Assembly (NCBI GenBank): GCA_963697675.1
Contig: CAVOOW010000006.1
Location: 1,203,518 to 1,267,517, forward strand
Length of the DNA stretch: 64,000 nucleotides
Direction: 5' to 3'
From: an uncultured Actinomycetota bacterium
Lineage (GTDB): Bacteria > Actinomycetota > Actinomycetes > JACCUZ01
In this document: positions 564 to 34,344 of the stretch, piece after piece
How positions within the stretch are numbered: the stretch's first letter is position 1
How the letters are laid out: each line of letters opens with the position of its first letter
Notes under the pieces: model-generated
Told to the model about the DNA's origin: nothing
What the model saw: the letters and a program-made list of their open reading frames with translations, nothing else
The model's database searches: none
Made by a program: the position numbers and the translations under genes

Positions 564-1574
564 TCAGCGGACTTCAAGCACGGAGGGGCCAGCTGCTACC
601 AGCTCACCGACGACCGGGAACCCGGGGACTTCCCCTGCGATGAGCAGGCCGCCAGACGTCTGGGCGTCGGCGAGCAGCAGCAGCTCCTCCTCGGTGACGG
701 ATGACGTCAGACGCGGCCGCACCCAGTCGAGGTTGCGTCTGGTACCGCCGCTCACGAACCCGTCGCGTAACGCCTCGCGTGAATCGTCGAGGTAAGGCAC
801 TTTCGACGAGTCGACCACGGCGGTGAGTCCGCTTGCGCGGGCGAGCTTGAAGAGGTGGCCGAGCAACCCGAACCCGGTGACATCAGTGGCGCACCGGGCG
901 CCGAGAGCGAGCGCCAGCTCGGCGGCCTCCTTGTTCAGCGTCGTCATCGCGGCCACCGCCTGTGGGAAGTTCTCGCCTGTGGCCTTGTGCCGGCTGTTGA
1001 GGACGCCTATGCCGAGAGGTTTGGTCAGGGTCAGCGGTAGTCCCGCCACACCCGCGCTGTTGCGCAGCAACCGTTCGGGGTGAGCCAGGCCGGTGACCGC
1101 CATGCCGTATTTGGGTTCGGGGTCGTCGACGCTGTGGCCGCCCGCGAGATGGCATCCCGCGATCCGGGCGACCTCCGCACCGCCGCGCAGCACCTCGGCG
1201 GCAAGGCCGAGGGGCAGAACGTCGCGGGGCCACGACAGGAGGTTGACCGCCACCAACGGCATTCCGCCCATCGCGTAGACATCGGAGAAGGCGTTCGCGG
1301 CCGCGATTCGGCCCCAGTCATAGGCATCATCTACAACCGGGGTGAAGAAGTCTGCCGTCGCGACGACCGCTTGGTCACCGGAGATGCGCACGACCGCGCC
1401 GTCGTCACCATCCTCGAGGCCCACAAGTAACTCTCCGTGCCCGAAGATCTCGGACGGCAGTGGGCCTAGGTCGGCGACCATTTCTTCGAGCTCACCCGGC
1501 GGGATCTTGCACGCGCATCCGCCGCCATGGGCGTAGGACGTGAGACGACCAGCCGGTCGCTGTTCCCCGGTCAC
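564..1574 (-). CDS. selD: selenide, water dikinase (selenophosphate synthetase), Cys-type
   Basis: HGGGCACKIPP motif near the N-terminus and an AIR-synthase-like body. The ORF extends to 1661, but the GTG at 1574 gives an E. coli-like N-terminus. The active-site residue is Cys, not Sec. Confidence 0.8.
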   Translation of the reverse strand: MTGEQRPAGRLTSYAHGGGCACKIPPGELEEMVADLGPLPSEIFGHGELLVGLEDGDDGAVVRISGDQAVVATADFFTPVVDDAYDWGRIAAANAFSDVYAMGGMPLVAVNLLSWPRDVLPLGLAAEVLRGGAEVARIAGCHLAGGHSVDDPEPKYGMAVTGLAHPERLLRNSAGVAGLPLTLTKPLGIGVLNSRHKATGENFPQAVAAMTTLNKEAAELALALGARCATDVTGFGLLGHLFKLARASGLTAVVDSSKVPYLDDSREALRDGFVSGGTRRNLDWVRPRLTSSVTEEELLLLADAQTSGGLLIAGEVPGFPVVGELVAAGPSVLEVR

Positions 1575-1621
1575 CTCGTGACCATAACGCCGCTCGGCGG
1601 TCCCGGGACTGGAGATCTGTT

Positions 1622-2993
1622 TTGGCTCCCTTCGCGCTCTTCGACCAGTCCGCATGGGCACGTACAGTCTCTGTCGTGGCCACGGAGGCGCCCGGCAACG
1701 CCCACGACGCCCGAAGCGCTGTGCCCCGCACCGATCTCGTACTTGCCGACCCGCGTCTCAACGAGGCAATGCGGCGACTGGGTAGCACGACTGTCAAGGC
1801 GGCCGTCCACGAGGCCCAGGACCAGGCCCGCCGCGGCGACATCGCCGCCGCTGCAGTGGCTGATGCGGCCGTCGCCGCCCTCCCCGAGACCGCCTGCTCC
1901 ATGCAGCGGGTGATCAACGCCACGGGCGTGCTGCTGCATACGAACCTCGGTCGTGCCTCGTTGTCCCAGGCTGCCATCGACGCCATGGTGGCCTCCGCCG
2001 GGCCAACCGACATCGAGCTCGACCTCGCCACCGGGCGGCGGGCCGGGCGAGGCAGGGGGGCGCTGGCCGCGCTAGCCGCAGCCGTGCCGGACGCAGAGGC
2101 AGTGCATGTGGTCAACAACGGCGCCGCCGCACTTCTGCTGGCAGCGACGGTGCTCGCGCCCGGGAAGGAGATCATCGTCAGCCGCGGAGAACTGGTCGAG
2201 ATCGGCGACGGCTTCCGCATCCCGGATCTGCTGGCCAGCACGGGCGCGAGGCTGCGCGAGGTCGGCACCACCAACCGCACTACGTTGGCCGATTACGAAC
2301 AAGCGGTCGTGGCCGAGACCGGATTCGTGCTCAAGGTGCATCCCTCGAACTTCGTTGTGTCGGGCTTCACCTCGGCGGTACCGGTGGAGGCGCTGGCTGC
2401 GCTAGGGCCACCGTTGGTGTGCGACATCGGCTCCGGGCTGCTGGCCAGGAACCCGGACCTGCCGGACGAGCCGGACGCCAGAACCACGCTGCGGGCCGGC
2501 GCTGCACTGGTCACTGCGAGCGGCGACAAGCTGCTTGGTGGCCCGCAGTGCGGCCTGCTTTTCGGCCGCGCCGAGATCGTGGAAACCCTCCGCCGTCACC
2601 CGGTGGCCCGCGCGCTCCGGGTCGACAAGCTGACGTTAGCGGCTCTTGAGGCGACGCTGCGGGGTCCGACGACACCAACCGCGTTGGCGCTGGTCTCGAC
2701 CTACAGGCGATCTGTATGACCGGGCCGAGCGCCTGGCGGCCGCGCTCAATGGCGCGGGCCATGACGCCGTCGCTGTCGAAACGGAGGCGGGCGTCGGCGG
2801 CGGAGGCGCGCCGGGGGTGATCCTGCGCAGCGCTGCCGTCAGCCTGCCCGAGACCTACGCTGCTCGGCTGCGCTCGCACCGGCCGGCCGTACTCGGGCGC
2901 CTCCGATTCGGTCGGTGCTTCCTCGACCTGTACGCCGTGCCGCCCGGTGACGATCAAGCCATGCTCGAGGCGGTCATGACATGCCGGACGTGA
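1622..2993 (+). CDS. selA: L-seryl-tRNA(Sec) selenium transferase, apparently frameshifted near 2695-2720
   Basis: The N-terminal 365 aa (1622-2719) contain RVINATGVLLHTNLGRA. The SelA C-terminal domain (DLYDRAERLAAAL...GGGGAPGVILRS...FLDLYAVPPGDDQAMLEAV) continues in the +1 frame to 2993. Combined length is ~457 aa, about that of E. coli SelA. Confidence 0.7.
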
Positions 2994-3075
2994 CGCAGGC
3001 CCGCCTGCTCAGCGCACACGTCCGAGCAGGATCCGGTCGCCAGATTCGGGACACTGCCTGGCTACGATCGGGCAT

Positions 3076-3171
3076 GGAGGCGTGTGTGTTCCTGGTGGGC
3101 GCCCCGGTCTTCAACACCGGTGAGCGGCGGCATCCGTCGCTGGCGGGTTCGATTCCCGTCCGCCTCCGCCA
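3076..3171 (+). tRNA. selC: tRNA-Sec (anticodon UCA)
   Basis: 96 nt including a 3' GCCA. GGAGGCG/CGCCTCC acceptor stem, anticodon stem CCGGT/ACCGG with loop CUUCAAC (UCA at 3111-3113), an 8-bp long variable arm and a T-loop TTCGATT. It lies between selA and selB. Confidence 0.85.
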
Positions 3172-3259
3172 CGCCCATTCGCGGCCCTCGAACCAGGCCT
3201 GTTGGACCGCACCCCATGTCGTCATCGGACGCCGAACGCGTCAGAGCCGTGATGCTCTT

Positions 3260-5017
3260 ATGCACGTCATAGCCACTGCCGGGCATGTCGACCATGGCAA
3301 GTCCACGCTGGTGCGTGCGCTGACCGGGATGGAGCCCGACCGCTGGGCCGAGGAGCGGCGCCGTGGCCTGACCATCGACCTCGGGTACGCCTGGACGACG
3401 CTTCGATCCGGCGAAACCCTCGCGTTCGTCGACGTACCGGGTCACCAACGCTTCATTGCCAACACCCTGGCCGGCATTGGCCCAGCTCCCGCGGTGCTCT
3501 TCGTGGTCGCCGCCGACCAAGGCTGGCGCCAGCAGTCCGAGGAGCATCTCGGCGCCGTCGACGCCCTAGCTATCACCCATGGGCTGCTCGCCGTCACGCG
3601 CTGCGACCTCGCCGATCCAGAGCCGACCATGATCGAGGCGCTCGAGATCTTGGCGCAGTCAAGTTTGGGCGAGGTCGAGGCGGTCGCTGTTTCCGGCTCG
3701 ACCGGAGTTGGGCTCGACGAGCTCCGAGCCGCCCTCGGTCGACTTGTGGCGCGACTGCCTGCACCCGAGGCCTCGGGCCGCGTCCGGCTGTGGATAGACC
3801 GCGCCTTTACCATCCGCGGCAGCGGCGTCGTGGTCACGGGCACGCTCGGCGCCGGTCGCCTCCGAGCCGGTGACGAGTTGCAGCTTCGCGACAGGATCGT
3901 ACGAGTGCGCGGCCTGCAGTGCCTGGGCCGGCCGAGCACTGAGGTCTCCGCAGTCGCCAGAGTCGCGGTCAACCTGCGCGACGTCGCCCTCGACGACGTG
4001 CGGAGAGGCGACGCACTCCTCACACCCGGCGCCTGGCGGACGACCAGAGAGCTCGACGTCCGGATGTCGCGAAACCCACGTGACATGCCTGGCGAGCAGT
4101 TGCTGCATCTAGGAACCGCCGCGCTACCCGTCCACCTGCGACCCCTCGGAAGTGACACCGCACGACTGATCCTGCGCGACGAAGTCGCGCTCGGGACAGG
4201 TGATCGAGGTGTGCTGCGTTCACCTGCCACGCCGGTGACCGGTGCGGGCGTGCTCATTCTCGACGCGGACCCGCCAGCTATCCGCCGACGTGGCGCGGCC
4301 CGCGCTCGGGCCGCTGCTCTCGAGCAGGCGACCGGCCTGCTCGAGCTCGCGGCCGAGGTCGAGCGGCGAGGAGCTGTCCGGCGAGCCGAGCTGGTTGCCC
4401 TTGGAGTGCCGCTCGACGACGTCGAGGAAGTTCATGTCGCCGGCGACTGGTTGGTCGCACGTCGCCAGTGGGCGGAATGGTGCCAGGCACTTGGGGAGGC
4501 GGTGGACACCCACGCGCGCAACGAACCTCTTGCGACAGGCCTGCCGCACGAGGCTGCCCGCCGAGCGTTGGCGTTACCTGATATCCGACTACTTCAACCG
4601 CTTCTGGAATCGACCGGGTTGGAGAGCGCCGACGGCCGGGTCCGTCGCCCGGGGACGGTACCCCGGTTGGGGGCAGCCGAGTCCGGGCTGCAACAACTCG
4701 AGCAACGGCTATCCGTCGACGCATTCGATGCTCCCGAGCGGCACGACATCGAGGCCCTCGGCCTTGGCCCGCGAGAACTCGCAGCCGCAGCGGGCGCCGG
4801 GCGCATCCTGCGCCTCCCCGGCGAGGTTGTGCTCCTCCCTGATACGCCGGCGCGCGCGATGCGGATTCTTGCCGAGCTCTCGCAACCGTTCACGACCAGT
4901 GCCGCCCGCCAGTCGCTCGGCGCGACCCGACGGGTGACAATTCCGCTGCTCGAACACCTTGACGGCCTGGGGTGGACGCGACGCCTCGACGCGTCGCGCC
5001 GGGAAGTCGTCCGGTGA
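3260..5017 (+). CDS. selB: selenocysteine-specific elongation factor
   Basis: Starts [17 protein letters not shown] (GTPase P-loop), ~585 aa with C-terminal winged-helix-like region. The ORF's in-frame upstream extension overlaps the tRNA-Sec and was trimmed. Confidence 0.85.
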
Positions 5018-5041: not shown

Positions 5042-5929
5042 TTAGCCCTCAAGGAAGACGCCGTTGCGCTCGCGTCCCATCATGGCGTAGCCGAGGTTGG
5101 TGTTCGCTGCGTGGGACTTGAAGCTGAACCCAAGTCCGGATCCACTGAACGACCCAGTCGAACGCGCGCGAGCGAAACTGCCTAAGAACGCCGCCGGGTC
5201 GGTGGGCGGCACGGTGGAGCCCTTGCCGCGAGGTTGCCGGTGCTCGATGGCCTCCCACTTGACAGTGAAACTGACGGTCGCGGGAACCATGTTCGGTCCC
5301 CCGAACTGGAAGCTGTCGATGACCGAAACATCGCGGGCTTCCAGGGTCGCGCGTCGCCCGTCATGACTCACCTTGAAGGCGTCCTGGGGGATCGGAACCA
5401 CCCAGAACAACCCTGACGGCTGAACGCCACCGTTGTAGTCGTGCACCTGAGAGCCCGAACCGGGCTCGAAGAGATCAATTCAAACGAAACCGAATGCGCC
5501 GTGTTGCGCCGTGCCGTCCGCGGCGATGTAGCGCCCACGGAAGGCACGCATGTCGGTCTCCAGGTTGTACTGCTTGCCGTCGCTACCCGTGGCCGTCCCG
5601 GCGTGGAAGGCCAGGCTGGTGAAACCGGATCGGTCGGTGATAGCGCTGGGGTCAACGTCTAGACCCTGCAGCGTGAGCCCGCTGTATGGCAACGTGATCT
5701 CCGGTGACCCCGGCGCCCAGACGTGTATCCCGGGTAGCCCGGGGTCGAAACCGCCAGGGATCGGCTGCGGCTGCGGCAAAACGCCGCTCCGTTCGTGAGC
5801 CTGCGCGGGAGTGGCGACGCCAACGCTGGATCCAACAACCGCCGCGGCACCGGCAAACGCTCCGTACTTCAGGACGTCTCTGCGGCCTGGCTTGTCTGGG
5901 GATACCCCGGCATTTGCGCTGACACCCAT
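5042..5929 (-). CDS. Tat-signal secreted protein of unknown family with in-frame TGA (candidate selenoprotein; Sec codon at 5480-5482)
   Basis: Two same-frame ORFs (5480..6145 and 5042..5446) are separated only by TGA. GGAGGG SD lies 4 nt before the ATG at 5929; twin-arginine signal (SPDKPGRRDVLKYGAFAGAAAVV...ATPAQA). GC3 is high on both sides of the TGA; a hairpin follows 12 nt downstream. Confidence 0.5.
5451..5467 (-). promoter_or_regulatory. candidate SECIS-like hairpin (GAGCCCG-GUU-CGGGCUC) 12 nt downstream of the in-frame UGA
   Basis: Perfect 7-bp GC-rich stem with G/U-containing apical loop inside the coding sequence. Its position matches where bacterial SECIS elements sit. Confidence 0.4.
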
Positions 5930-7513: not shown

Positions 7514-8367
7514 CCGCCCCGTTCACGCTGGCAGCCGTCGCCTACGACCCGAAGGTCGTGACCATCTGGGACGGTTTCCGCCACTGGCTGCTCGGTCAGG
7601 GCATCGAGTTTGACTATGTCCTGTACTCGAACTATGAACGCCAAGTCATCGCCCTGCTCGAGGGCAGGGTCGACGTGGCATGGAATTCCCCACTCGCCTG
7701 GGTGCGCTCCCGTCGCCTCGCAGAAACCCGACACGTTCCGGTGCGACCGGTGGCCATGCGCGACACCGACTGTGGACTTACGTCGGTTGTCGTGGTTCGG
7801 GGGGACTCGACGGTGGAATCCGTGCCACAGCTACGCGGCCTGGCGGTGGCCACCGGTGCGATCGACTCGCCCCAGGCCACGCTCCTGCCTTTGTCCCTGC
7901 TGCGCGCCGCCGGGCTACAGCCGTACGTCGATGTCCAGGTCCATCGGTTTGACGTAGGTGTGGGGCTCCATGGTGACCACATCGGCGGCGAACGAGACGC
8001 CGCACGCGCACTCGCGGCCGGCGACGTCGACGCAGCATGCATCTCGGATTCGAGCCTGCTCCTGTTGGCTCAGGAGGGAACGCTGCCATCCGGCTCGGTC
8101 AGAGTCGTCGGGCAAACCGCACCGTATGACCACTGCAACATGACCGCTGGGCCATCGGCCGACTCGGATCTGCTCCAAAGGTTCTGCGAGCTCCTATTCA
8201 GCATGTCCTATGCCGACCCGAAACTGCGACCGCTGTTGGACCTCGAAGGTCTCAAGGAGTGGCGGCGCCCACGTACCGAGGGCTACAACGCGCTCGAGCG
8301 CGCCGTCGACGAGGCGTCCTTCTACGACACTCGGGGAGAAATTCGTGCAGACGAGTATCGACCTTGA
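7510..8367 (+). CDS. PhnD/SsuA-like substrate-binding-fold protein without signal peptide
   Basis: Periplasmic-binding-protein type II fold sequence; no N-terminal signal or lipobox. Translationally coupled to its neighbours. Confidence 0.55.
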   Translation: MTAPFTLAAVAYDPKVVTIWDGFRHWLLGQGIEFDYVLYSNYERQVIALLEGRVDVAWNSPLAWVRSRRLAETRHVPVRPVAMRDTDCGLTSVVVVRGDSTVESVPQLRGLAVATGAIDSPQATLLPLSLLRAAGLQPYVDVQVHRFDVGVGLHGDHIGGERDAARALAAGDVDAACISDSSLLLLAQEGTLPSGSVRVVGQTAPYDHCNMTAGPSADSDLLQRFCELLFSMSYADPKLRPLLDLEGLKEWRRPRTEGYNALERAVDEASFYDTRGEIRADEYRP

Positions 8368-9523
8368 CCAGCTCGGACTGGACGGCGGCGGGCAGCTGCT
8401 GCTCAGCCGGGCGCTCGCGGGCCTTCCCACCGGTTCGCGTCTCGCCGTTCGTGGCAAACACCCAGCACTCCGGGTGCACCTGGCAGCCTGGTGCCGCGCA
8501 CAGGGTCACGCCTTTCATGACAGCCCGGAGCGACCCGCGATAGTAAAGGGCACAGCGCAGGACAGTCGCTGGCGTGGCGCCGCGCGCGCCGGTGATCCAT
8601 TCGGACCACCGGACGCGCACGCCGACAAGCACTGGGGCCTTGCCGCCCGCGGTGCTCTGGTCGAACCCGGGGGACCCCCGCTCGTCACCGACCTGGTCGA
8701 CCGGGAATGGGTCTGGGCCGACATCGCACCACGGTTGTACGCGGCCGCGGCAGCCGGCCAATGGGATCCGACAGCCGCCGTGGACTGGATGGCACCGCTG
8801 ACGATCCCAGATGACATCGAGACGGCCACCGTCCAGATCATGACGTTCCTGGTCGAAAACGAGCAGGCAGCCTTGATCATCCCCGCACGCCTGCTCGGCC
8901 GGCTCCACCCTCATTTCCGTGAAGTGATGCAGCTCCTCGCTGTTCAGGCAGCCGATGAGGCGCGCCACGTCGAAGTCTTCACCCGTCGTGCGCTGTTGCA
9001 CCGCGAGGAGATGGGGGTATCCGGGGCAGGCGGCCGCGCATCCTTGCAAACGCTGCTCGACGAGCCGGACTTCACCCTTTCGGCCTTCCTGCTGTCAGTG
9101 CTCGGGGAGGGCACGTTCCTCGACCTCCTACGGTTCCTGCACCAGTACGCGCCCGATCCCATCACCGCCCGAATCGCCAGGCTGGTTCTACAGGACGAGG
9201 CGCGCCACGTTGCCTTCGGCGTTGCCCACACCGCCCACGTCGCGCGCGCCGACCCCGCCTTCCTTGGCCGGTTGCGCACCGCTGTGGAACGACGTCACTC
9301 CACGCTGCTCGACACCGCGGGACTGAACCAAGACGTGCGCGACTCCCTCGTCATCGTCGCGGCTGGGTCCTGGACACCCGACGCAGTCAGCCACGGCTGG
9401 AACGCAGTCCAGCAGCTGCAACGAGCCATGGACGAGGGGCGTCGGCGCCGACTCGCCCACATCGGGTTCCCACCAGATGAGGCCGCTGAACTATCCGCAA
9501 TGCACACCCGCAACTTCATGTGA
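8345..9523 (+). CDS. DUF2249-like (TusA-fold) N-terminal domain fused to ferritin-like diiron-carboxylate domain
   Basis: Two DEARH (E-x2-H) motifs (DEARHVEVF and QDEARHVAFG) typical of diiron carboxylate proteins. N-terminal ~70 aa resemble DUF2249. GTG start with GGGAGA SD overlaps the upstream gene. Confidence 0.55.
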   Translation: MQTSIDLDQLGLDGGGQLLLSRALAGLPTGSRLAVRGKHPALRVHLAAWCRAQGHAFHDSPERPAIVKGTAQDSRWRGAARAGDPFGPPDAHADKHWGLAARGALVEPGGPPLVTDLVDREWVWADIAPRLYAAAAAGQWDPTAAVDWMAPLTIPDDIETATVQIMTFLVENEQAALIIPARLLGRLHPHFREVMQLLAVQAADEARHVEVFTRRALLHREEMGVSGAGGRASLQTLLDEPDFTLSAFLLSVLGEGTFLDLLRFLHQYAPDPITARIARLVLQDEARHVAFGVAHTAHVARADPAFLGRLRTAVERRHSTLLDTAGLNQDVRDSLVIVAAGSWTPDAVSHGWNAVQQLQRAMDEGRRRRLAHIGFPPDEAAELSAMHTRNFM

Positions 9524-9649
9524 CGTCCGTTTCCAAGCGTCGGACAAGGCCTTGGCTGGCTGGGCTCGACGTCATCGGTCCTACGCATTACCTCCCGTGG
9601 AGACTGACAGCAGCCGGTGCTCGGCGTACCTTCACGGCGAGGAGGAGTC

Positions 9650-10033
9650 ATGGTCGACACGACACATCCCAGCGCCATCGACTGCCTGCTCGTCGCCGTC
9701 CGCGCCGGCCTGGACCGGGTCCAGCCAGCCGAGCTCGCCGACGCGATGGCGGCCGGCGCCATCGTCGTGGATATCCGCCCGGTCGAGCAGCGCCACCGCG
9801 ACGGTACTCTGCCCGGTGCGTTGGTCATCGACCGCAACGTCCTCGAGTGGCGACTGGACCCGAGCAGCCCGCACCGCATCCCCGAGGCGACCAACGCAGA
9901 GCGGCGGATCATCGTGGTTTGCAACGAGGGGTTCAGCTCCAGCCTGGCCGCTGCCACGCTGCGCCAACTCGGCCTGCCGCACGCCACCGACCTTGACGGC
10001 GGCTTCCAGGCGTGGCGGCGCACCGTTCCGTAG
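9650..10033 (+). CDS. rhodanese-like sulfurtransferase (single domain, active-site Cys)
   Basis: IVVCNEGFSSS active-site loop; GGAGGA SD before the ATG at 9650. Confidence 0.7.
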   Translation: MVDTTHPSAIDCLLVAVRAGLDRVQPAELADAMAAGAIVVDIRPVEQRHRDGTLPGALVIDRNVLEWRLDPSSPHRIPEATNAERRIIVVCNEGFSSSLAAATLRQLGLPHATDLDGGFQAWRRTVP

Positions 10034-10058: not shown

Positions 10059-10826
10059 CTACAGCGTCTGGCCGCCGTCAGCGACCAGAGCGTGCCCGGT
10101 GACGAAGGAGGCTGCGTCGGAGCACAGCCAAAGGACAGCTGCGGCGATTTCGTCGGGCTTGCCCATGCGGCCGATCGGTTCTTGGGCGATCACCTTGTCG
10201 CGCCCTTCGGCGGTGTCGCCGGTGAAGCGGTCCATCATTTCGGTGTCGATGATGCCGGGACAGATGGCGTTGATCCGGATACCTGACGTCGCGTAGTCGA
10301 GTGCGGCGTCCTTGGTCAGCCCGACCACGCCATGTTTCGCGGCGGCATATGCGGCGCCGCGTCCAAAGACCTTGATCCCGGCGCCGGAGGAGGTGTTCAC
10401 GATCGAGCCTCCGCCGTGTTGCAGCATCAGCGGGATCTCATACTTCATGCACAGAAAGACCCCGCGGAGGTTGATGGTGATGATCCGGTCCCATTCCTCC
10501 TCGGTGATGTCGGCGGTCGGCTTTGGCTGCTGTTCGGCGCCGGCGTTGTTGAAGGCGTAGTCCAGATGCCCGAAGACCTCGACTGTCTGGTTCAGCGCGG
10601 CCCGGACATCCTCGCCGCGGGTCACGTCGCAGCGAACGGCGAGGGCCTGGCCGCCGAGGTCCTCGATCATGCGGGCGGTCTCTTGGTTGCCGTGCTCGTC
10701 GATGTCCGCGACCACGGTGTTGACGCCTTCGCGGGCGAAGGTCAGTGCGGTGGCACGGCCGATACCGCTGGCGGCGCCGGTCAAGAACACGACCTTGCCG
10801 TCGAGGTTTCCGTTCGTGGCAGTCAT
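10059..10826 (-). CDS. SDR family oxidoreductase
   Basis: [10 protein letters not shown] Rossmann motif and NAG / YxxxK pattern; 255 aa. Confidence 0.8.
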
Positions 10827-10851
10827 CTGCGCTCTCCTGTCTTTGTCAGCA

Positions 10852-11885
10852 CGGGTTCACGGGCGGAGAAGGACCTTGATCGCCTGCCGGGAGTCCATGG
10901 CCTGGTAGCCGGCGGCGGCGCTGCTCGAGCGGCAGCTCCAGGTCGAAGACCCGGCCGGGACGGATGCGTCGGTTCCAGATCCGGTCCATCAGGTCGGGCA
11001 GGAAGCGGCGGACCGGGGCGGGGCCGCCGTGCAGGTGGACGTGGGAGAAGAACAGCTCCTCACCGGCCAGGGACACGTCGTGGGTGACGCCGACGTAGCC
11101 GACGTGCCCGCCGGGGCGGGTGGCATCGGATGGCCTGCATCATCGATTCCTGGGTGCCGACGGCCTCGATCACCGAGTGCGCGCCGAGCCCGTTGGTGAG
11201 GTCCTTGATCGCCTCCACGCCGGCGTCGCCGCGTTCGATCACGATGTCGGTGGCGCCGAACTCCAGCGCGAGTTGCTGGCGCGGCTCGTGTCGGCTCATC
11301 GCGATGATCCGTTCCGCGCCGAGCTGTTGGGCGGCCAGCACCCCGAGCAGCCCGACCGCGCCGTCACCGACGACGGCGACGGTCTTGCCCGGGCCGGCTT
11401 CGGCGGCGACGGCGGCGAACCAGCCGGTGCCGAGGACGTCGGAGGCGGCCAGGAAGTCCGGGACCAGGTCATCGTCGGGGACCTCGGGGGTGGCGACCAG
11501 GGTGCCGTCGGCCAGCGGCACCCGCATCCGCTGCGCCTGGGCGCCGTCCGGGGCGGCGGGCTCGCGGTGGACGCAGGAGGTGTGGTAGCCGGCGCGGCAG
11601 ATCTCGCAGGTGTTGTCGGAGGCGAAGAACGAGCCGACCACGAACTGGCCGGGCCGAATCGTGGTGACCGCGGATCCGACCTCTTCCACGATGCCGGCGT
11701 ACTCGTGTCCCATCGGCGAGGGCTCGGTCGATCGGGTCCGACGCCCCGGTAGGGCCACAGGTCCGACCCGCAGATGCAGGTCGCCGACAGCCGGATGACC
11801 GCATCCGTCGGCGCCAGGATCGTCGGCTCCGGTCGGTCCTCGACCCGGACATCGCCGGGGGCGTACAGGACAGCTACTCGCATGA
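10852..11885 (-). pseudogene. Zn-dependent alcohol dehydrogenase (formaldehyde-dehydrogenase-like), at least 3 frameshifts
   Basis: N-terminus MRVAVLYAPGDVRVEDRPEP...CICGSDLWPYRG in one frame, GHEYAGIVEEVG...core in a second, C-terminus ELFFSHVHLHGGPAPVRR...LELPLEQ in a third, then AAAGYQAMDSRQAIKVLLRP* in a fourth. Confidence 0.6.
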
Positions 11886-11947
11886 TCAGGTGTCTCCTTA
11901 GATGCCGTGAGGAATCTGCGCCGGGGACGCTCAGCCCGAGCGTCGGG

Positions 11948-12498
11948 TCACGATTCGGTTGGGTCAGCCACGTTGATCCAGACCGTGAACTGGTTCCCGG
12001 CGGAGGCGATCTTGTCCAACCCACGATCCACCGATCCGAGCCGGACCAGGCCCGGCGGCGGGACGGACTGGCCGAGGTCGTCGTAGAAGATGGCGATGTC
12101 GCCGGTCGGCGGCCAGTAGTAGATGCCGGCCAACGTCGGGATCGATGACCCGGCTCGGCGCCGGATGCGTCGATCCGGTAGGGCAGTCGCCCGGACTTTG
12201 CCTGTCCCATCGGGTCGTGCAGAGTCAGGCTCAGCGGCAGCATCGCGGCGAACTCGCGCGCTGCTGGCGTGCCGTCCAGGGTTGCTGTCGCGAGCTCGTC
12301 GCCGACCCGCAGCACGACCCGCGCGGAGCCGGTCGAGGCTGCCGGATGCGCGTGCGACGCGTGCGCGGCGGTCGGTCGCGGCGATCGTCGAGCCGGACTG
12401 CCGAGCTCGGCAGCCGAGCAGCCGGTCAGCACGGCGGCCAGCGACGCGGCAGACGACGGCGGCGCCGACCGGCGACGGGAGCGGAGTCGGGATGTCAA
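11948..12498 (-). pseudogene. cyclophilin-like fold lipoprotein, frameshifted
   Basis: N-terminal lipobox-like LTGCS and VVLRVGDELATATLDGTPAAREF in one frame; C-terminal GIYYWPPTGDIAIFYDD...VWINVADP in another. Confidence 0.5.
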
Positions 12499-12610
12499 TG
12501 TTCATGTCCCCAAGTAAAGCCGCGCCAAACGCGCTGAGAAAGTCACTGTTGATGGGTGTACTGACAGGGCATCGCTCACCACCGGTACACGCCTCGTACT
12601 GTCGATCGAC

Positions 12611-13507
12611 GTGGACAACCGAACCGAAGTCCGCGAGTTCCTCACCTCGCGGCGAGCCAAGATCACTCCCGAGCAGGCCCAGGTACCTCAGGCCGGGACA
12701 ACGCCGCGTCCCCGGGCTACGGCGCAGCGAGGTCGCCGCCCTGGCCGGGATGAGCGTCGAGTACTACGCCAAGCTGGAACGCGGCACGCTTGGCGGTGTC
12801 TCGGCCGGCGTCCTCGACGCGATCGCCCGCGCCCTGCAGCTCGACGACGCCGAACGGGCCCACCTGTTCCACCTCGCCCACGCCGCCGACGGCACCACCG
12901 CCGCCATGCGGCCCCGCCGCCGCACCGCAACGCAGTGGACGGTCACGGCCGAGCCTGCAATGGACCCTCGACTCCATCACCACCGGACCGGCGATCGTCG
13001 GGAACAACAGGTCTGACCTGCTCGCCACCAACCACCTCGGCCGCGCGCTGTACGCCGACCTCTACGCCGACCCGACCAAGCCACCGAACTTCGCCCGGTT
13101 CACGTTCCTCGACACCGCCGCCCACCGGTTCTACCCCAACTGGGACCTCGCCGCCGACATGACCGTCGCCAACCTGCGCACCGCGGCCGGCCAGGACCCG
13201 CACGACAAGGGCCTCCACGACCTGGTCGGCGAGCTGTCCACCCGCAGCGACGAGTTCCGCCGCCGCTGGGGCTCCCACAACGTCCGCACCCACGGCAGCC
13301 GGCACCAAAGCACTTCCACCACCACGTCGTCGGCGACCTCACCCTCGCCTACGAAAGCCTCGACCTCAGAGCCGAACCCGGCCTCACCATGACCATCTAC
13401 ACCGCCGAACCCGACTCACCCACCGCCCACGCACTCGCCCTGCTCGCCTCCTGGGCCGCCACCCAAGAACTCGCCCCGTCCGAGCGCAGCGAACCTCTGC
13501 GCAGCTA
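12611..13507 (+). pseudogene. XRE-family HTH transcriptional regulator (Streptomyces-type, ~290 aa), multiple frameshifts
   Basis: MDNRTEVREFLTSRRAKITPEQA, then RVPGLRRSEVAALAGMSVEYYAKLERG, then ...LATNHLGRALYADLY...HDKGLHDLVGELS, then ...HFHHHVVGDLTLAYESLDL... spread over three frames. Confidence 0.55.
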
Positions 13508-13680: not shown

Positions 13681-14760
13681 TCAGTGTCGGTCGACTAACA
13701 GGACTTCGATGGCGTTGTTTCCGTAGCCCAGCCGGTTCCACGGTGGGACGTCGGGCTGTACGTTGCCGGCGGCGTCGGTCGCCCGGGCGCGCAGGGTGTG
13801 GCGTCCGACGTCGTTGCTGTCCCAGACGAACGACCAGTCCTGCCACTGGTAGGGACCCTTTGGCGGGTCCAGCTGCGCGGGGTGCCAGTCCCCTTCGCCG
13901 GTGAGGCTGATGTCGACCTGCGTGACGGGCCCGGTGCCTGACCAGGCTTTTCCACGAACCGTGTAGGGCCCGAGGGGAAGGATGGCGCCGGGAGCGGGGT
14001 CTGTGATGCGGGCACGCACGCGCATGAGGCGCACGGCCTCGTGCGGGCGATCCGGCCACTGGTAGATGTAGTGGCCGGTCTGGAACTCGCCGGTGTAGGC
14101 CTCGGTCAGCACGTCGATCCGCCTCAGCCACTTCACCGAGGCGACGGCATACCAGTGGGGCACGATGAGCCGGAACGGGGCGCCGTGATCGGGCCTGAGC
14201 GGTTCGCCGTTCATCTCGTAGGCGATCAGGATGGCCGATGACGGATCGCTTGCTTCGGAAAGCGGCAACGCGCGGACGAAGGTGAGGTCGTTCTGATTGG
14301 TCTCCGGGAGGATCGCCTGAAGGTGGTACGAGCCGTGATCGGCACCTTCGAACCGGACGTCAACACCCTGGGTCGCTGGCTGCGCTAGCGCGAGTACGTC
14401 GCTCAGCAGGGCGCCGGTCCAACGTGCCGTCGACACGGCGTAGTCGCCCCACGGTTCCCCGGTCGGAAGCGGTCTCATGTCCAGGCGTCCGTTGCCTGCA
14501 CACTCCAGCGTGACCGCCTCATCGTTGGCCGGCAGCGCGCGCAGGTCATCGAGGGTGAGGGTCGTGGGGTTGCCCACGGCACCGCCGATTTCCAAGGTGC
14601 CGTCGTGCGTGGGCAACGCGAAGTTGCTGCGGACGTAGTGAAAGTCGGTGGGGGTGATGTCCCCGACCAGGGCTTGGGGCGGTGCCTCGGCGTTGTAGGG
14701 GGCGGGATTGATCATCTCTAGTGCGGCGCGTGCCGACTCCAGATCGCCTGCGACGGTCAT
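13681..14760 (-). CDS. sulfite-oxidase-family molybdopterin oxidoreductase
   Basis: Oxidoreductase molybdopterin-binding domain plus Mo-cofactor dimerisation domain (HYVRSNF...LECAGNGR...PFRLIVPHWYAVASVKWLRRI). Start is the ATG at 14760; the longer ORF upstream is an antisense artefact. Confidence 0.75.
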   Translation of the reverse strand: MTVAGDLESARAALEMINPAPYNAEAPPQALVGDITPTDFHYVRSNFALPTHDGTLEIGGAVGNPTTLTLDDLRALPANDEAVTLECAGNGRLDMRPLPTGEPWGDYAVSTARWTGALLSDVLALAQPATQGVDVRFEGADHGSYHLQAILPETNQNDLTFVRALPLSEASDPSSAILIAYEMNGEPLRPDHGAPFRLIVPHWYAVASVKWLRRIDVLTEAYTGEFQTGHYIYQWPDRPHEAVRLMRVRARITDPAPGAILPLGPYTVRGKAWSGTGPVTQVDISLTGEGDWHPAQLDPPKGPYQWQDWSFVWDSNDVGRHTLRARATDAAGNVQPDVPPWNRLGYGNNAIEVLLVDRH

Positions 14761-14819
14761 GGGCGCTGTCTTCCTCTCGATTGATCGTGGTGTTGATCGT
14801 CGCCGCGGGCGCTGCGGCG

Positions 14820-15686
14820 TCAGAAGTCGGAATCGTCGAAGCTCGGCTCGCGGCCGTCGTTGAAGGCTCCGATTCCTTCGACGCGGTCGGGGTGGACAGC
14901 GGAGCGCCAGTGGGCGTCCATCATGATCGCGATCGCCTGCTCGATCGGTTGCCCTTCGCCGAGGTGGACGGCGCGTTTGACGGACTGCACCGCCGTTGGT
15001 GAGTTGCTGGCGATCTTGTCCGCGATGCGTCGGGCGGCGAGCATGAGCTCGCCGGGGGAGTGGATCTCGTTGACCATGCCGAGGCGGTAGGCCTCCTGCG
15101 CCGGAACTGGGTCGCCGGTCATGAGCATCTGCAGGGCCTTGCCGCGGGGCAGCAGACGCGGCAGCAGAGCCGGTGAGCCGCCGCCGGCAGCCAGGCCGAG
15201 CATGGCTTCGGGTTGGCCGAACGTCGCGGTCTCGGAGGCGATGATGAAGTCGGTGCTCTGAGCCAGCTCGCAACCGCCGCCGTAGGCGATGCCGTTGACC
15301 GCAGCGAAGATCGGCTTGCGCAGCTGTCGCACGGTGTAGAGGGTGCGGTCGAAGGCCTGGCGCTGTCGCAGCCAGTCCTCCTTGGTCATGCTCTTGCGCT
15401 GTCGCAGGTCGCTGCCGACGGAGAAGGCCCGGTCGCCGGCTCCGGTCAGGACCACGACCCGAACGGCGGTGCGCACCGCGATCGTCTCCACGACCTCGGT
15501 CAGCAGGGCGCCCATCTCCGTGGTGATCGCGTTGTCGGCATGCGGTCGGTTGAGCGTGACCACCGCAACCTGGCCGCCCGCGAGGTAGTCGAGGAGTACG
15601 GGAGCCTCGGTCTCGACGACATCTTGAGGGGGCGGTCCGAAATCGAGGGCCGCCCATCGGTCCGTGCCGGATGAGCTCATCGCCAC
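14820..15686 (-). CDS. enoyl-CoA hydratase/isomerase family protein
   Basis: Crotonase-fold motifs (VVLTGAGDRAFSVGSDL, AAVNGIAYGGGCELAQSTDF). Confidence 0.8.
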   Translation of the reverse strand: MAMSSSGTDRWAALDFGPPPQDVVETEAPVLLDYLAGGQVAVVTLNRPHADNAITTEMGALLTEVVETIAVRTAVRVVVLTGAGDRAFSVGSDLRQRKSMTKEDWLRQRQAFDRTLYTVRQLRKPIFAAVNGIAYGGGCELAQSTDFIIASETATFGQPEAMLGLAAGGGSPALLPRLLPRGKALQMLMTGDPVPAQEAYRLGMVNEIHSPGELMLAARRIADKIASNSPTAVQSVKRAVHLGEGQPIEQAIAIMMDAHWRSAVHPDRVEGIGAFNDGREPSFDDSDF

Positions 15687-21169: not shown

Positions 21170-22087
21170 GTGCGCATCGGGGCGGTGTTCCCGACCGGGG
21201 AGATCGGTGGTGATGCCGCCGCGATACGTGCCTGGGCACAAGGGGTGGAAGAGCTGGGGTACGACCACATCTTCGCCTTCGACCACTTGTTCGGCTTTCG
21301 CGACAACCCTGCCCAGACGGCGGTCAGGCCGCAGACCGCGGCAGGCGCTGGGACGCGCCGCTGCTGTTGTTCAGCTTCCGCGCGGGGATCACCGAACGAG
21401 CGGAGCTCGCCACCGGTGTTCTTGGCGCCCCGATACGTCAGACGGTTCTGGTGCGTCAGCAAGCGGCTGGAGCTCGACGTCCTCAGCGGTGGCCGGCTGC
21501 GGCTGGGGCTCGCGGTCGGCAGCAAACGACGCGAGAGCGATGCCTCGAACGAGAACTACGAAAACCGCGGGCGCAGGATCGAGGAGCAGATTGCCGTACT
21601 GCGCGCGTTGTGGACCGAGGAAGCGGTCACCTTCGCCGGCGAGTGGCAGCGCCTTGACGGGGCGGGCCTAACGCCGCGCCCGGTACAGCGCGCGATCCCC
21701 ATCTGGCTGGGCGGGATGTCAGACCGGGCGATCGAACGCGCCGCCCGCCTGGCCGACGGTTGGATGCCGCTGCCGATGGAGCCCGACGAGGAGGCAAGGG
21801 CAATTGTCGAGCGGTTCCGCCGACATGCCGACCGATGTGGGCGCGCCCCAGACAGTCTCGGTCTCGAGGCCTGTCGTCTCGTTCCGGAGGTGCCGACCGA
21901 GCGCTGGCGGCAGCTCAGGGACGGGCGGCAGCAGCTCGGGGCAACCCACTTGACCGTCCTGACCTACGGTGCCGGTCTGGGATCGGCAGACGAGCACGCT
22001 GTCGGCTCTCGAAAGCATCAAGTCCGTCCTGGACCACTGAACCGTTCTCGGCGATGGCGAAACGTGGTCAAGCAATTCGGAAATTGA
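21170..22087 (+). pseudogene. LLM-class (luciferase-like) F420/flavin-dependent oxidoreductase, two frameshifts
   Basis: Frame A carries the N-terminus and ELDVLSGGRLRLGLAVG...; the middle block FSFRAGITERAELATGVLGAPIRQTVLV sits in another frame (21367-21470). Confidence 0.55.
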
Positions 22088-22210: not shown

Positions 22211-22285
22211 GGTGGAGACGAGGGGACTCGAACCCCTAACCCCCGCCTTGCAAAGGCGGTGCGCTACCAATTGCGCCACGTCCCC
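22211..22285 (-). tRNA. tRNA-Ala (anticodon UGC), CC encoded, no full CCA
   Basis: Cloverleaf read manually: acceptor GGGGACG/CGUCUCC with the G3:U70 alanine identity pair; anticodon loop UUUGCAA. Confidence 0.85.
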
Positions 22286-22371
22286 CAGGCCGGCGGCACC
22301 CGGCCACCGGTGGGTAGATCCGCGACCACCGAGGTCGTCGCGTGCAAGTCCAAGGTTATGCCGTGCCCGAC

Positions 22372-22497
22372 CTAGCGGACCCGGTCGGTCGCCTCGGCCC
22401 ACAGGTCTTGCTCGGCGTTGCGGTCGGCCGCAACCTTGCGCAGGGCCAGAGCCCCGCCGATGGCGGCAACGGCCACCACGAGCAGCTTCTTGGACAT
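22372..22497 (-). CDS. DLW-39 family small membrane protein
   Basis: MSKKLLVVAVAAIGGALALRKVAADRNAEQDLWAEATDRVR (41 aa) between tRNA-Ile and tRNA-Ala, its usual actinobacterial position. Confidence 0.7.
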   Translation of the reverse strand: MSKKLLVVAVAAIGGALALRKVAADRNAEQDLWAEATDRVR

Positions 22498-22530
22498 TTG
22501 CTCCTCCTGCGGTCTGCGGGCGTGCGGGAG

Positions 22531-22604
22531 TGGGCCTAAGTGGACTTGAACCACTGACCTCTGCCTTATCAGGGCAGCGCTCTAACCGGCTGAGCTATAG
22601 GCCC
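22531..22604 (-). tRNA. tRNA-Ile (anticodon GAU)
   Basis: Acceptor GGGCCUA/UAGGCCC; anticodon loop CUGAUAA; canonical D and T arms. Confidence 0.85.
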
Positions 22605-22651
22605 GCGTGCCGCGAAAGACTACCCCACGGCGTGATCAGCAGGCGCGCCCG

Positions 22652-23145
22652 TTACACGTCCTCGGTGAGAGTGACGTGCAGGCCGCCGACCAGGCTCGCA
22701 GCCAGGTTGTAGAGGAACGCCGCCAGGGTGCCGAGCGCCGTCATCAAGATCACGTTGATGCCGACGAGCAGTGCGGTGAGGGAGAACACCTTGCTGAACG
22801 CGATGTAGTCCAGGATGTTGACGCCCTGCGCGTTGTCACTCGAGCGCGTGACGCTCTCGACGGTCTGGCCGACCGAGTCGAAGACCCCCATCGAGTCGAG
22901 CACCGACCACAGGATGCTGACGGCGACCAGGGTCACGATCGCCAGGCCGATGGCCAGCAGGAACGACAGCTTCATGACCGACCAGGGATCGACCCTGCCC
23001 AGGACGAGGCGGGCCTTGCGCGCCTTGGTCACCTTCGACGGCGCGGGCGCCGGCCGAGCCGCGGCGACCTCGGGGACGGGTGGCATCATCGCGGTCGGCT
23101 GGCTGCCGCCGCCCCACTCGCCGCGCTGCGGAGCGCTTGGCGTGC

Positions 23146-23149
<4 letters not shown>
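22652..23149 (-). CDS. DUF3566 membrane protein (Rv0007-like)
   Basis: Pro/Ala-rich N-terminus then two transmembrane segments. Sits between gyrA and the tRNAs. Confidence 0.65.
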
Positions 23150-25731
<2,582 letters not shown>

Positions 25732-25789
25732 AGGTGCTGTCTCCTTGCAGTGCGGGTACGGCGTCGCGCGCGGGCGTCGACTGCCTGGT

Positions 25790-27886
25790 CTAGATGTCGA
25801 GGAATCGGACGTCCTTGGCGTTGCGCTGGATGAACTTGCGCCGTGACTCGACGTCCTCGCCCATCAGCGTCGTGAACATCTCGTCGGCCTGGGCAGCGTC
25901 TTCGAGGGTGACCTGCAGCAGGATGCGACGCTCCGGATCCATCGTGGTCTCCCACAGCTCGTCGTTGTTCATCTCGCCGAGACCCTTGTAGCGCTGGACG
26001 CCGTCGTCCTTGGACATCTTGCGGCCCGCCTCGAGGCCGGCCGCCGTGAGCACGTCGCGCTCGCGGTCGGAGTAGGCGTATTCCGGCCTCGCCGGTCGCG
26101 ACCACTTCAGCTTGTAGAGCGGTGGCTGCGCGAGGAACACGAAGCCCTGCTCGACGACCGGGCGCATGTAGCGGAACAGCAATGTCAGCAACAGGGTGCG
26201 GATGTGCTGACCGTCGACGTCAGCGTCGGCCATCAGGACGACCTTGTGATAGCGCAGCCGGTTGATGTCGAACTCGTCGCCGTTGATGCCGGTGCCCAGC
26301 GCCGAGATGATGGCCTGCACTTCTTGGTTCTGCAGGACGCGGTCGATGCGCGCGCGCTCGACGTTGAGGATCTTCCCGCGGATCGGCAGGATCGCCTGCG
26401 TCTTCTGGTCGCGGCCCTGCTTGGCCGGGCCACCAGCCGAGTCACCCTCGACGATGAACAGCTCGCACTCTTCGGGGTTGGTCGACTGGCAGTCGGCGAG
26501 CTTGCCCGGCAGGCTGCCGCCGCCGAGCAGACCCTTGCGGCTGCGGGCCGCGTCGCGGGCCTTGCGTGCAGCAAGTCGTGCGAAGCCGGCGCTCTGCGCC
26601 TTGCGGGCAATCTCCTTGCCCTCGCTCGGGTTCTTCTCGAACCACTCGCCGAGGCGGTCGTTGACCACCTTCTGCACGAAGGACTTCGTGTCGGTGTTGC
26701 CGAGCTTGGTCTTGGTCTGGCCCTCGAACTGCGGGTCCGCGAGCTTGACGCTGACGATCGCGACCAGGCCCTCACGGACGTCGTCGCCGGTGAGGTTCGC
26801 GTCCTTCTCCTTGAGGATGCCCCAGTCGCGGGCGAACTTGTTGATCAATGTCGTGAGCGCCGCGCGGAAGCCCTCTTCGTGCGTCCCGCCCTCGTGGGTG
26901 TTGATCGTGTTGGCGAACGTGTGGACGGACTCGGTGAAGCCGCTGTTCCACTGCATGGCGACGTCGAGCGACATGCCGCCGTCGATGTAAGCGGACTCCG
27001 CCTCGAACGACACGACAGTGCGGTGCACGGCCTCTTTGCGCGCGCCGAGGTAGTTGACGTAGTCGACGAGGCCGCCGTCATAGCGGTAGACCACCTCGGT
27101 CTGCGTCGTCTCCTCGATCTCGTCGGCGTCGCTCTCCTCCGTCGAGGCGGCGCGCTCGTCCTTCAGAACGATAGTGAGGCCCTTGTTCAGGAAGGCCATC
27201 TCGCGCAGCCTCGTCGACAGGGTCTCGAAGCTGTAGTCGGTCGTCTCGAAGATGTCGCCGTCTGCCCAGAAGGTGATCTCGGTCCCGGTGTCGTCGACCG
27301 GACCGCCCTTCGCGAGCGGGGCATCTGGCACGCCGTGGCTGTAGGACTGCGTCCACAGGTGGCCCTCGGTCCGGATCGCGACGTCGAGCTTGGATGACAG
27401 CGCGTTCACGACGGAGACGCCGACGCCGTGCAAGCCACCGGAGACCTTGTAGCCGCCGCCGCCGAACTTGCCGCCGGCGTGCAGCACGGTCAGCACGACC
27501 TCGACCGCTGGGCGTCCCTCGCTCTCGACGATCCCGACGGGGATGCCACGGCCGTTGTCGCGCACCCGGACGCCGCCGTCGGCAAGGATCGTGATCTCGA
27601 TGCGGTCGCAGTGCCCGGCCAGAGCCTCGTCGACCGAGTTGTCGACGACCTCGGTGACAAGGTGGTGCAGGCCGCGCTCGCCGGTGGAGCCGATGTACAT
27701 GCCGGGGCGCTTGCGGACGGCCTCGAGGCCCTCGAGGACCTGGATCGCGCTGGCGTCGTAGGTCGGCGAGTCGTCGCCCATGCGCGAACCCATCAGCGCG
27801 TCCGGAGCAGGCAACTCGACGGGGGTGAGAGGCGGCGACTCCTGTGGATCGGTCTGCTGCTCAACTGGCTCGGCAGGCTGGGACAC
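25790..27886 (-). CDS. gyrB: DNA gyrase subunit B
   Basis: 698 aa; GHKL ATPase, Toprim (EGDSAGG) and [10 protein letters not shown] motifs. Confidence 0.95.
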
Positions 27887-28138
27887 AGGTCACCTTTCCT
27901 CGTGGTGCGCAGCAGTCGAGACCCGCGTTCGGGGGTCTGGGGGCGGCTGTTCGCGCCAAGGTCGCATCGGGGTGCGAACTAGCCTCCATCCTACCTGTCC
28001 GGGAGCCCTGGAACGGCCATCAGGGCCCTCTGGGGACAACGGAGCCGTGCGAATACGGGTAGGGGTGACCCTCCCCACGCGGGAGCACCGCTCACGAGGC
28101 TCTCCGGCCGTCCGCCGCCCGACGCGGCAAGTCGGCGG

Positions 28139-28777
28139 TCACCCGTACGTGTCGCGAGGCCCACGGCCCTTGATCCGGAGCGCGCCACGCTTCCAGGACG
28201 GCGCGGAAGGGCCCAAAACGGTCACCTTGTGGACGGTGCCCTCGCCCAGCTCGGCTGCGAGCTGGCGAACCAGGGTCGGAGCGAGCATCCGCAGCTGGGT
28301 GGCCCAGGCGGTGGTGGCGGCGGCGACGACCAGCTCACCGTCCGCGAAGGACACCGGGGAGCTGTGCTCGGCGATCTGCGGTCCCACGATGGCCGGCCAA
28401 CGGCCCATCGCGCCCCCGACGGCAGCGTCGGTCTCCCACCCGCGGTCGGCGACGAGCCGGTCGAGGGAGGACTCGAGCAGCTGCGGGTCACGGTCGTCCG
28501 GGTGGGCGCCGCTGCGGGCGGAGGTGTCGGCGCGGCGGCGGCGACGGGGGTTCTCGGCGGCGCCGTCGGGACCACTCGCCGCGCTTCGGCCGGCGGCACC
28601 GCCGGCCCGCGTGTCCAAGCCCCGTCGCTTGGCTTCGGCCTTCGCCGCAGCGAGTGCGCCACGGGCGACCTCGATGCCGCTCCGCCCGCCGGTGCTCACG
28701 GCGGCGGACTTCCGCGGACCTGACCCGGCCTCCTTCGCGGCAGGGTCGTCTCCAGCACGGAGCTGCTCGTCGGTCAC
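28139..28777 (-). CDS. DUF721 (DciA-like) protein
   Basis: Conserved recF-gyrB intergenic gene of actinobacteria; C-terminus ...[13 protein letters not shown]...[22 protein letters not shown]. Confidence 0.7.
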
Positions 28778-29910
28778 CGCACCCGCCGTACCTCTCCACC
28801 CATGACATCCACGCGAGCGCCCGCGAGCGCCTCAGGGACATCGTCGGGCACGGCCGCGGTGACGAGCACCTGCTCGGCCCCGGCCACCAGCCCGGCCAGG
28901 CGCTCGCGGCGCTGCGAGTCGAGCTCGGCGAACACGTCATCGAGGATCAGGACGGGTTCGCCGTCGTCATCGGTGTCGCTGCTCAGCAGGTCGTAGGCCG
29001 CCAGCCGCAGCGCCAGCGCGAACGACCACGACTCCCCGTGGCTGGCGTAGCCCTTGGCCGGCATCGGTCCCAGCTTGAGCAGCAGGTCGTCTCGGTGCGG
29101 GCCGACCAGCGAGACGCCGCGCTCGAGCTCGTTCTTTCGCAGCTCGGAGATCGCATTGAGCAGCGCCCCGGACAGCATGTCCCGGTCGGCGACCAGCGGC
29201 ACACCGTCACCCAGCGAGCACCGGTACTCCAGGGCCGCTGGACCGCCCGAGTCGGCGACCGCGTCATAGGCCTTGTCCACCAGCGGGCGCAGCGCGTCGA
29301 CCAGCTCGATCCGCGCGGCCAGCAGCTCGGCCCCCGTGGTCGCCAGGTTCGAGTCCCACACCTCGAGCGTGCGCAGGTCGCCCTTGCCGGCGCGGATGCT
29401 CGCTCCGGCCGACTTGAGCAACGCGTTGCGTTGCCGCAGCACCCGGTCGTAGTCGGCGCGGACGCCGGCCAGCCGCGGCGTACGTACGACAAGAAGGTCG
29501 TCGAGGAACCGGCGCCGCTCGCTCGGGTCGCCCTTGACCATCGCCAGGTCCTCGGGGGCGAACAGCACGGTGCGCAGGATGCCCAGCACATCTCGGGGCC
29601 GTGGCACGGGCGAGCGGTTGACCCGCGCCCGGTTGGCCTTGCCGGGGGAGATCTCGACCTCGACGAGCATGGCCCTCGTTCCCCGCGTCACGTTTCCGCG
29701 GACCACCGCCCGCTCCGCATTCAGGCGTACGAGCGGCGCGTCTGCGGCCACCCGGTGCGAGCTCAGCGTCGCGAGATAGCCGACGGCCTCGACGAGATTG
29801 GTCTTGCCCTGTCCGTTCGGCCCGACCAGCGCTGTGACGCCGGGATCGAGGGGCAGCTCGACCTCGGTGTAGGACCGGAAGTCGCGCAGCGACAGATGAG
29901 TCAGGCGCAT
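28774..29910 (-). CDS. recF: DNA replication/repair protein RecF
   Basis: Walker [14 protein letters not shown]; ABC signature. Confidence 0.9.
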
Positions 29911-29953
29911 GTGGTCGGGCGGCCGCCGGTGCTCGGAGCGCTCCTTGGGGGGC

Positions 29954-30856: not shown

Positions 30857-30922
30857 AGGTGTCGCCTCCCTGGCTACGCGAAAATATCCCTTACTCCTAA
30901 AGGGTTTTTCCCCACATCTTCC

Positions 30923-32482: not shown

Positions 32483-32497
32483 TCAGCCCGCACGGGC
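32415..32497. repeat. 33-bp tandem repeat x2.5, each unit holding a CAGCCCG-N3-CGGGCTG hairpin; overlaps the dnaA stop
   Basis: Units 32415-32447, 32448-32480 and 32481-32497 (partial) read directly from sequence. Confidence 0.8.
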
Positions 32498-34009: not shown

Positions 34010-34344
34010 GGGGGCGATTTCCTCCAATTCCGTGACACCGTTGTTTGTCACGGTTTCCACCCTCTCGTGCGTTCTGGCCGTGTCGGCCGTCTGATCGAGC
34101 GGGTCCGGATCACCGTCGGTGACAGCCAAATCGCCCCTGGGTAACGCTCCAATTTGTCCGCGATGTCCCACTCCGACCTTCCCCGTCCACATGGTCATCC
34201 ACAGCCTGTGTACACAGGTGCCCTGAGGCCGGTCACGAGTCAACGCGGCGCTGCCCGGAGGGCAGCGGATCGTGCACGGCTCGGGTAGGGAAGTCGCCCG
34301 ACGACGGGCGACGCTAACAACCCGGTGGGCCGGGCAGCAAGCGG

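Follow-up and report, generated by a model that had tools for sequence, protein, structure and literature searches.

In the window, the whole stretch of 64,000 nucleotides analysed here, the reading frame of selA is divided by a single extra base, which is probably an indel of the consensus or of the assembly and not a mutation of the organism. If so, the real gene would encode an ordinary 438-aa SelA within a complete selD, selA, tRNA-Sec and selB cluster, the Sec pathway would be working, and selA would be broken only in the deposited contig. The window corresponds to the replication-origin region of an actinobacterial chromosome, and several of its proteins occur unchanged in the protein collection, all on one NCBI/ENA contig of 1,669,237 bp, with closest relatives that all come from soil metagenomes; as to assembly type and technology, we infer that the contig is probably metagenome-assembled and derived from long reads.

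The whole selA span extends from 1676 to 2993 on the forward strand with a single frame change, and comprises the following elements:

1676 to 2704, forward strand: 5' part of selA, 343 codons, with the N-terminal tRNA-binding domain and the PLP core domain (Pfam, TIGR00474)
2705, forward strand: extra nucleotide in selA, the A of TAC-A-GGC, located by DNA alignment with the orthologues L015, L016 and L017
2717 to 2719, forward strand: premature TGA, four codons past the shift
2706 to 2993, forward strand: 3' part of selA, 95 codons and the stop, with the C-terminal domain in the +1 frame

The first open reading frame (1622-2719, forward strand) terminates in ALALVSTYRRSV followed by the stop, and the second, open from 2646 to 2993, reads through GDLYDRAERLAAAL, GGGGAPGVILRS and LDLYAVPPGDDQAMLEAV. 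The original prediction, that selA is split and that its C-terminal domain lies in the +1 frame, was reproduced in its ORF ends, coordinates and frames. The start codon is likely GTG at 1676 rather than TTG at 1622, because the orthologues begin at the aligned VATEAPG. Between the shift and the TGA at 2717-2719, the out-of-frame codons are AGG CGA TCT GTA, and the 3' part stays open up to the stop position that is common to the orthologues.

In the first ORF, the Pfam SelA profile (PF03841, length 367) is matched over positions 1-258, and in the second over 279-365; the first ORF also contains a complete Se-cys_synth_N (PF12390) match (1-40 of 40, E = 1.4e-9). With the NCBIfam selA equivalog TIGR00474, whose cut-off is 268 bits, the ORF as deposited scores 371 bits over model positions 3-337 of 455, and removal of one base raises the score to 406 bits over positions 3-453 of 455, a full-length equivalog match. 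The core domain contains the PLP lysine motif TASGDKLLGGPQCG, whose Lys is encoded at 2528-2530 (SGDKLLGG) and which aligns to the corresponding motif of Escherichia coli SelA. The repaired protein has 438 aa, the same length as its relatives P0001 and P0002, and aligns to residues 11-461 of E. coli SelA (PDB 8uzw), on which the break falls in the linker where the C-terminal domain begins. The window shares with known bacterial SelA proteins (TIGR00474/PF03841; E. coli 8uzw, Aquifex 3w1h) the Se-cys_synth_N domain, the PLP core SGDKLLGGPQ, the C-terminal domain and the selD, selA, selC and selB context, whereas it differs from them in that its frame, as deposited, is broken at 2705, so that the annotated product would be devoid of the C-terminal domain. 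Judged on its sequence, the gene belongs to the SelA family by every criterion save continuity of the frame, which does not run uninterrupted through the C-terminal domain owing to the shift at 2705 and the TGA at 2717-2719.

The other components of the Sec machinery, selB, selC and selD, are clustered with selA:

564 to 1661, reverse strand: selD (selenide, water dikinase) in its Cys form, GGGCACK; TIGR00476 375 bits, model positions 1-307 of 311; Pfam AIRS and AIRS_C
3076 to 3171, forward strand: tRNA-Sec (selC), anticodon TCA, intact; ARAGORN; Rfam RF01852 70.4 bits (gathering threshold 47)
3260 to 5017, forward strand: selB, Sec-specific elongation factor, intact; Pfam GTP_EFTU, D2, Beta-barrel_SelB and SelB-wing_3; TIGR00475 260 bits
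5042 to 5929, reverse strand: candidate client selenoprotein, full length, with a TAT-type signal, a TGA at 5480-5482 and a hairpin at 5451-5467

The selD gene is also intact, its exact start codon being uncertain. In the window and in its closest relative, L017, tRNA-Sec is located between selA and selB (2993-3260), and in the more distant L018-L021 it lies upstream of selA, the stop of which overlaps the start of selB. The sel cluster is placed in a variable region beyond tRNA-Ile and tRNA-Ala, with a GC3 below that of the core. At the matching position, the relative L028 carries chromate-resistance genes. Farther along the window, the interval 8210-10033 of the forward strand encodes an uncharacterised 437-aa protein, with a weak AurF-like di-iron match only, followed by a single-domain rhodanese (9617-10033); a role of this pair in sulfur or selenium trafficking is possible.

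The candidate selenoprotein beside selB displays the TAT-type signal RRDVLKYGAFAGAAAVVG, and its in-frame TGA is found in the context GFV-U-IDLFEPGSG. A hairpin with a 7-bp GC stem (GAGCCCG/CGGGCUC) begins 12 nt past the TGA, with a folding energy that is not significant alone (z = -1.0). Homologues of this protein present a TGA at the corresponding codon (L022), ORF calls that end exactly there, or a Cys (P0135, TGC), a pattern typical of Sec/Cys protein families. Neither Pfam nor NCBIfam provided a match, and the candidate looks like a member of an uncharacterised Sec/Cys family of exported proteins. The JGI calls at L022 (JGI 3300080684) and P0121-P0128 place a W at the in-frame TGA; apparently, an alternative code was used there, which would introduce a spurious Trp at the Sec position of full-length "proteins".

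The comparison of selA with its orthologues, which the original prediction had proposed as a check, reduces the split to one extra base. The three intact orthologues L015, L016 and L017 share 89-90% nucleotide identity with the window and exhibit one internal indel relative to it, the extra base at 2705, which is also the only indel over window positions 1504-3173 in the comparison with L017. Where the window reads TAC-A-GGC, the orthologues read TAC/TGC-GAC; the lesion is, consequently, an insertion together with an adjacent substitution, although the extra base cannot be assigned unambiguously within AGG. The insertion does not extend a homopolymer and is situated where the gene varies most, in the linker before the C-terminal domain, where one relative shows a 6-aa in-frame deletion. 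An Asp (GAC) occupies the position of the lesion in all 22 members of the two closest SelA protein clusters (clustered at 90% identity), none of which is more than 92% identical to the SelA of the window. The closest intact proteins, P0001 (92% aa identity) and P0002 (90%), are encoded by single 438-aa ORFs from soil metagenomes; in the scan of genome contigs, the best match of the repaired SelA was that of Mycolicibacterium pulveris, at 68% identity. A search of the plasmid collection for a record near-identical to the window yielded none.

Substitutions in selA were assigned to branches by parsimony, with L018, L019 and L021 as outgroups. The window branch accumulated 25 synonymous and 12 non-synonymous changes, and the branches of the intact L015 and L017 carried 20 and 14, and 19 and 14, respectively. 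Pairwise dN/dS amounts to 0.14-0.17 before the shift and 0.22-0.32 after it, and between two intact orthologues it is 0.25 before and 0.22 after the same position. Neither the branch counts nor the pairwise dN/dS reveal a trace of relaxed constraint in the selA of the window, and neither indels nor stops were found in the gene besides the lesion at 2705, so that selA lacks both marks by which a pseudogene would be recognised, relaxed constraint and additional lesions.

Frame disruptions are also found elsewhere in the window, where Pfam fragments in differing frames reveal that the genes of a Zn-dependent alcohol dehydrogenase (ADH), a Cyclophil_like2 protein, an MmyB-like regulator and an LLM oxidoreductase are disrupted:

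10846 to 11883, reverse strand: Zn-dependent ADH, four one-base insertions
11948 to 12500, reverse strand: Cyclophil_like2 protein, five one-base insertions and two deletions
12611 to 13490, forward strand: MmyB-like regulator, four one-base insertions
Intergenic spacer of the ADH/cyclophilin-like/MmyB block: two one-base insertions
21170 to 22087, forward strand: LLM-class (luciferase-like) oxidoreductase, -1 and +1 shifts that take it out of frame from about 21300 to about 21468
60618 to 62016, forward strand: GT87 glycosyltransferase, isolated +1 shift at about 61060-61070

Two metagenome contigs, L028 and L029, which were found with the repaired ADH (97% aa identity) and are about 93% identical, contain the ADH/cyclophilin-like/MmyB module in intact form, adjoined by gyrA in L028. 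In a three-way alignment with both, a 2.4-kb block of the window (10923-13313) comprises 15 one-base insertions and two one-base deletions that are specific to the window, and no in-frame stops are found in the block once the indels are removed. The substitutions on the window branch are predominantly synonymous, with 15 synonymous and 7 non-synonymous changes in the ADH gene (4, 3 and 15 at codon positions 1, 2 and 3) and 31 and 12 in the MmyB gene (6, 3 and 34), a third-position bias that matches that of the intact relatives. The ADH and MmyB genes together, therefore, bear eight insertions without an excess of first- or second-position substitutions, and eight frameshifts under such conditions in two genes are not the product of neutral decay. 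About half of the insertions of the block do not extend an identical neighbouring base, and A, C, G and T were inserted at roughly equal frequency despite a GC content of 69%. Moreover, substitutions specific to the window show a 2.5-4-fold enrichment at distances of 1-10 nt from indels, which indicates that many of the lesions are complex (a substitution plus an indel) and lie in locally variable stretches; local GC content showed no relation to the indel sites. The genes that flank the block, an SDR (10059-10826) and a sulfite-oxidase-like gene (13681-14850), are intact. Most likely, polishing of the assembly was omitted or went wrong in the interval 10923-13313, and the dense indels there are almost certainly artefacts.

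The LLM ORF remains open despite its two shifts, with about 55 residues being read out of frame. The GT87 shift falls inside a GCGGTGGC near-repeat, and tblastn searches with homologues from Tsukamurella and Nonomuraea confirmed it; a Pfam search of the N-terminal GT87 fragment alone returned no match. This gene adjoins that of a class A PBP (58462-60621), as in Tsukamurella, in a conserved region outside the so-called island, and its shift shows that errors of frame reach the conserved core region too. The interval 22211-34519, the chromosomal origin region, carries on its minus strand tRNA-Ala, tRNA-Ile, the gene of a DUF3566 protein, gyrA, gyrB, dciA, recF, a gnd-like gene, dnaN and dnaA. 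The region from 22.6 to about 60 kb also includes yidC, jag, rsmG, parA, parB, trxB, sigM, murJ, the CCA-adding enzyme, ino1 and ponA, and about 38 kb of core genes are frame-intact.

In bacterial mutation-accumulation studies, base substitutions outnumber small indels by roughly a factor of ten. The window totals about 18 insertions versus 3 deletions, all of 1 nt, and the corrected tally of 18 of 21 replaces an earlier one of 20 of 23, on which a binomial test against p = 0.45 had given p = 4e-5. In curated bacterial pseudogenes, the insertion to deletion ratio is about 0.76-0.94 and the mean indel size is much larger (PMC6054270). The contig carries one-nucleotide, insertion-biased indels that are accompanied neither by neutral substitutions nor by stops and that are inconsistent with neutral decay.

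Several lines of evidence favour an artefact as the origin of the extra selA base. This gene has one indel, the removal of which restores a collinear 438-aa protein and a full TIGR00474 match; the constraint on it is not relaxed; and its partner genes, as well as the TGA-containing client gene, are intact. The insertions of the ADH/cyclophilin-like/MmyB block are unlike those of evolutionary decay, and the selA lesion resembles them in that its inserted base extends no homopolymer, is accompanied by an adjacent substitution and lies where the sequence is locally hypervariable. The GT87 and LLM shifts, and the insertion-biased tally of 1-nt indels when set against bacterial pseudogenes, point in the same direction. 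The selA insertion would, then, belong to the same class of errors as the other one-base insertions of the contig. Indel and complex errors, apparent frameshifts and inflated pseudogene counts are documented to arise when variants are collapsed or a consensus is built from long reads (PMC8445201, PMC8103633). The indels of the window are similar to such errors in that they affect single bases, often with an adjacent substitution, in variable stretches, and in that the genes hit are otherwise conserved and intact in relatives, but they differ in their strong bias towards insertions and in their very uneven distribution, with a 2.4-kb hot block. The writing of both alleles of a merged SNP into the consensus was also considered; it fits several sites by eye, but AGGC is not neatly produced from GAC/GGC, and it was kept as an idea only.

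Nevertheless, some observations count against an artefact. The selA insertion is isolated and outside the dense block, the frame-intact core of about 38 kb implies that errors are unevenly spread, local GC gives no account of where the indels are, and the linker of SelA tolerates real variation. It is possible, albeit clearly less probable than an error, that the strain itself underwent the frameshift, as a real and very recent mutation. In that case, SelA would lack the roughly 95 residues of its C-terminal domain, Ser-tRNA(Sec) would not be converted to Sec-tRNA(Sec) and the UGA of the client gene would end translation, a first step in losing the Sec trait that would be ordinary in kind. Loss of this trait via gene inactivation is a known evolutionary pattern. 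Consistent with a real mutation, the truncated ORF is devoid of TIGR00474 positions 338-455, selA is located in the variable region by tRNA-Ile/Ala with its lower GC3, and the contig, the core genes of which are mostly frame-intact, is not uniformly error-ridden, the selA insertion standing isolated on it. However, the normal constraint on selA, the absence of a second lesion and the intactness of selD, selB, selC and the TGA gene argue against it, as does the fact that a non-templated one-base insertion with a neighbouring substitution is uncommon among spontaneous mutations, and about 17 other lesions of identical kind are present on the contig, mostly in genes that are otherwise undecayed. 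The consensus or assembly indel is, hence, the reading retained here as the probable one.

A real frameshift could also be bypassed by a programmed or leaky +1 shift at the rare AGG codon (UAC AGG C), through which some full-length SelA would be made and a leaky Sec pathway would be kept alive for the TAT-exported selenoprotein, but this seems very improbable. AGG is indeed rare here (4.4 per 1000 codons and 4.9% of Arg codons), at known +1 sites (prfB, Ty1) the A site is occupied by a rare codon or a stop, and a shift anywhere within about 2637-2716 would yield a near-normal protein. The selA of the window resembles genes with programmed +1 frameshifting of the prfB, Ty1 and Ty3 type in needing a +1 shift and in having a rare AGG at the site, but differs from them in that its shift is not conserved and in that a slippery P-site codon and an upstream SD-like element are lacking: the shift is absent from the 22 close relatives and from all of the more distant orthologues examined, the P-site UAC is unable to re-pair in the +1 frame (ACA), and the upstream TTGGCGCTGGTCTCGACC does not contain a GGAGG-like (Shine-Dalgarno) stimulator. 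Programmed +1 frameshifting in selA was rejected on the grounds that the shift is not conserved and no slippery site is present.

An old and ongoing joint decay of selA, the Sec machinery, the selenoprotein and the genes of the island is hardly credible. The original prediction had offered the right pair of options, a sequencing indel or an inactivated selA, and this part stands; its further proposal, a joint decay of the Sec pathway and the selenoprotein along with other frameshifted genes of the island, finds no support in the data. Several genes of the first 22 kb are certainly frame-disrupted, which is what joint decay would predict, but selA has one lesion and normal constraint, and no damage is seen in selD, tRNA-Sec, selB or the TGA gene. 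In the same way, the disrupted neighbours, which had been taken as further instances of decay, combine many one-base insertions with a third-position bias and with neither in-frame stops nor an excess of first- or second-position substitutions, and a frameshift of the same type is found outside the island, in GT87. Pseudogenisation of sel genes is comparable to the case of the window insofar as a disrupted selA would abolish Sec synthesis, but differs from it in that selA, selB, selC, selD and the UGA client of the window are not further degraded.

The assembly of an active enzyme from two polypeptides, the core and the C-terminal domain, is next to negligible in probability, since no relative has a split SelA, even though both halves are open and conserved. 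A separate start for the C-terminal part was sought and rejected, TTG 2646 being the sole candidate before the conserved part, with no ribosome-binding-site-like sequence upstream.

The selA frameshift is not a new biological feature but an artefact or else a recent loss-of-function mutation of an ordinary kind. Taken at face value, it would lead to Sec synthesis being scored as lost and to several healthy genes being labelled as pseudogenes. Caution is advisable with respect to insertion-type errors on this contig, at 10.9-13.3 kb, 21.3-21.5 kb, about 61.07 kb and, possibly, 2705, and the Sec trait should not be scored as lost in this organism. The analysis suggests, instead, that the Sec system, together with its client selenoprotein, works, and that selA is probably broken in the assembly alone.
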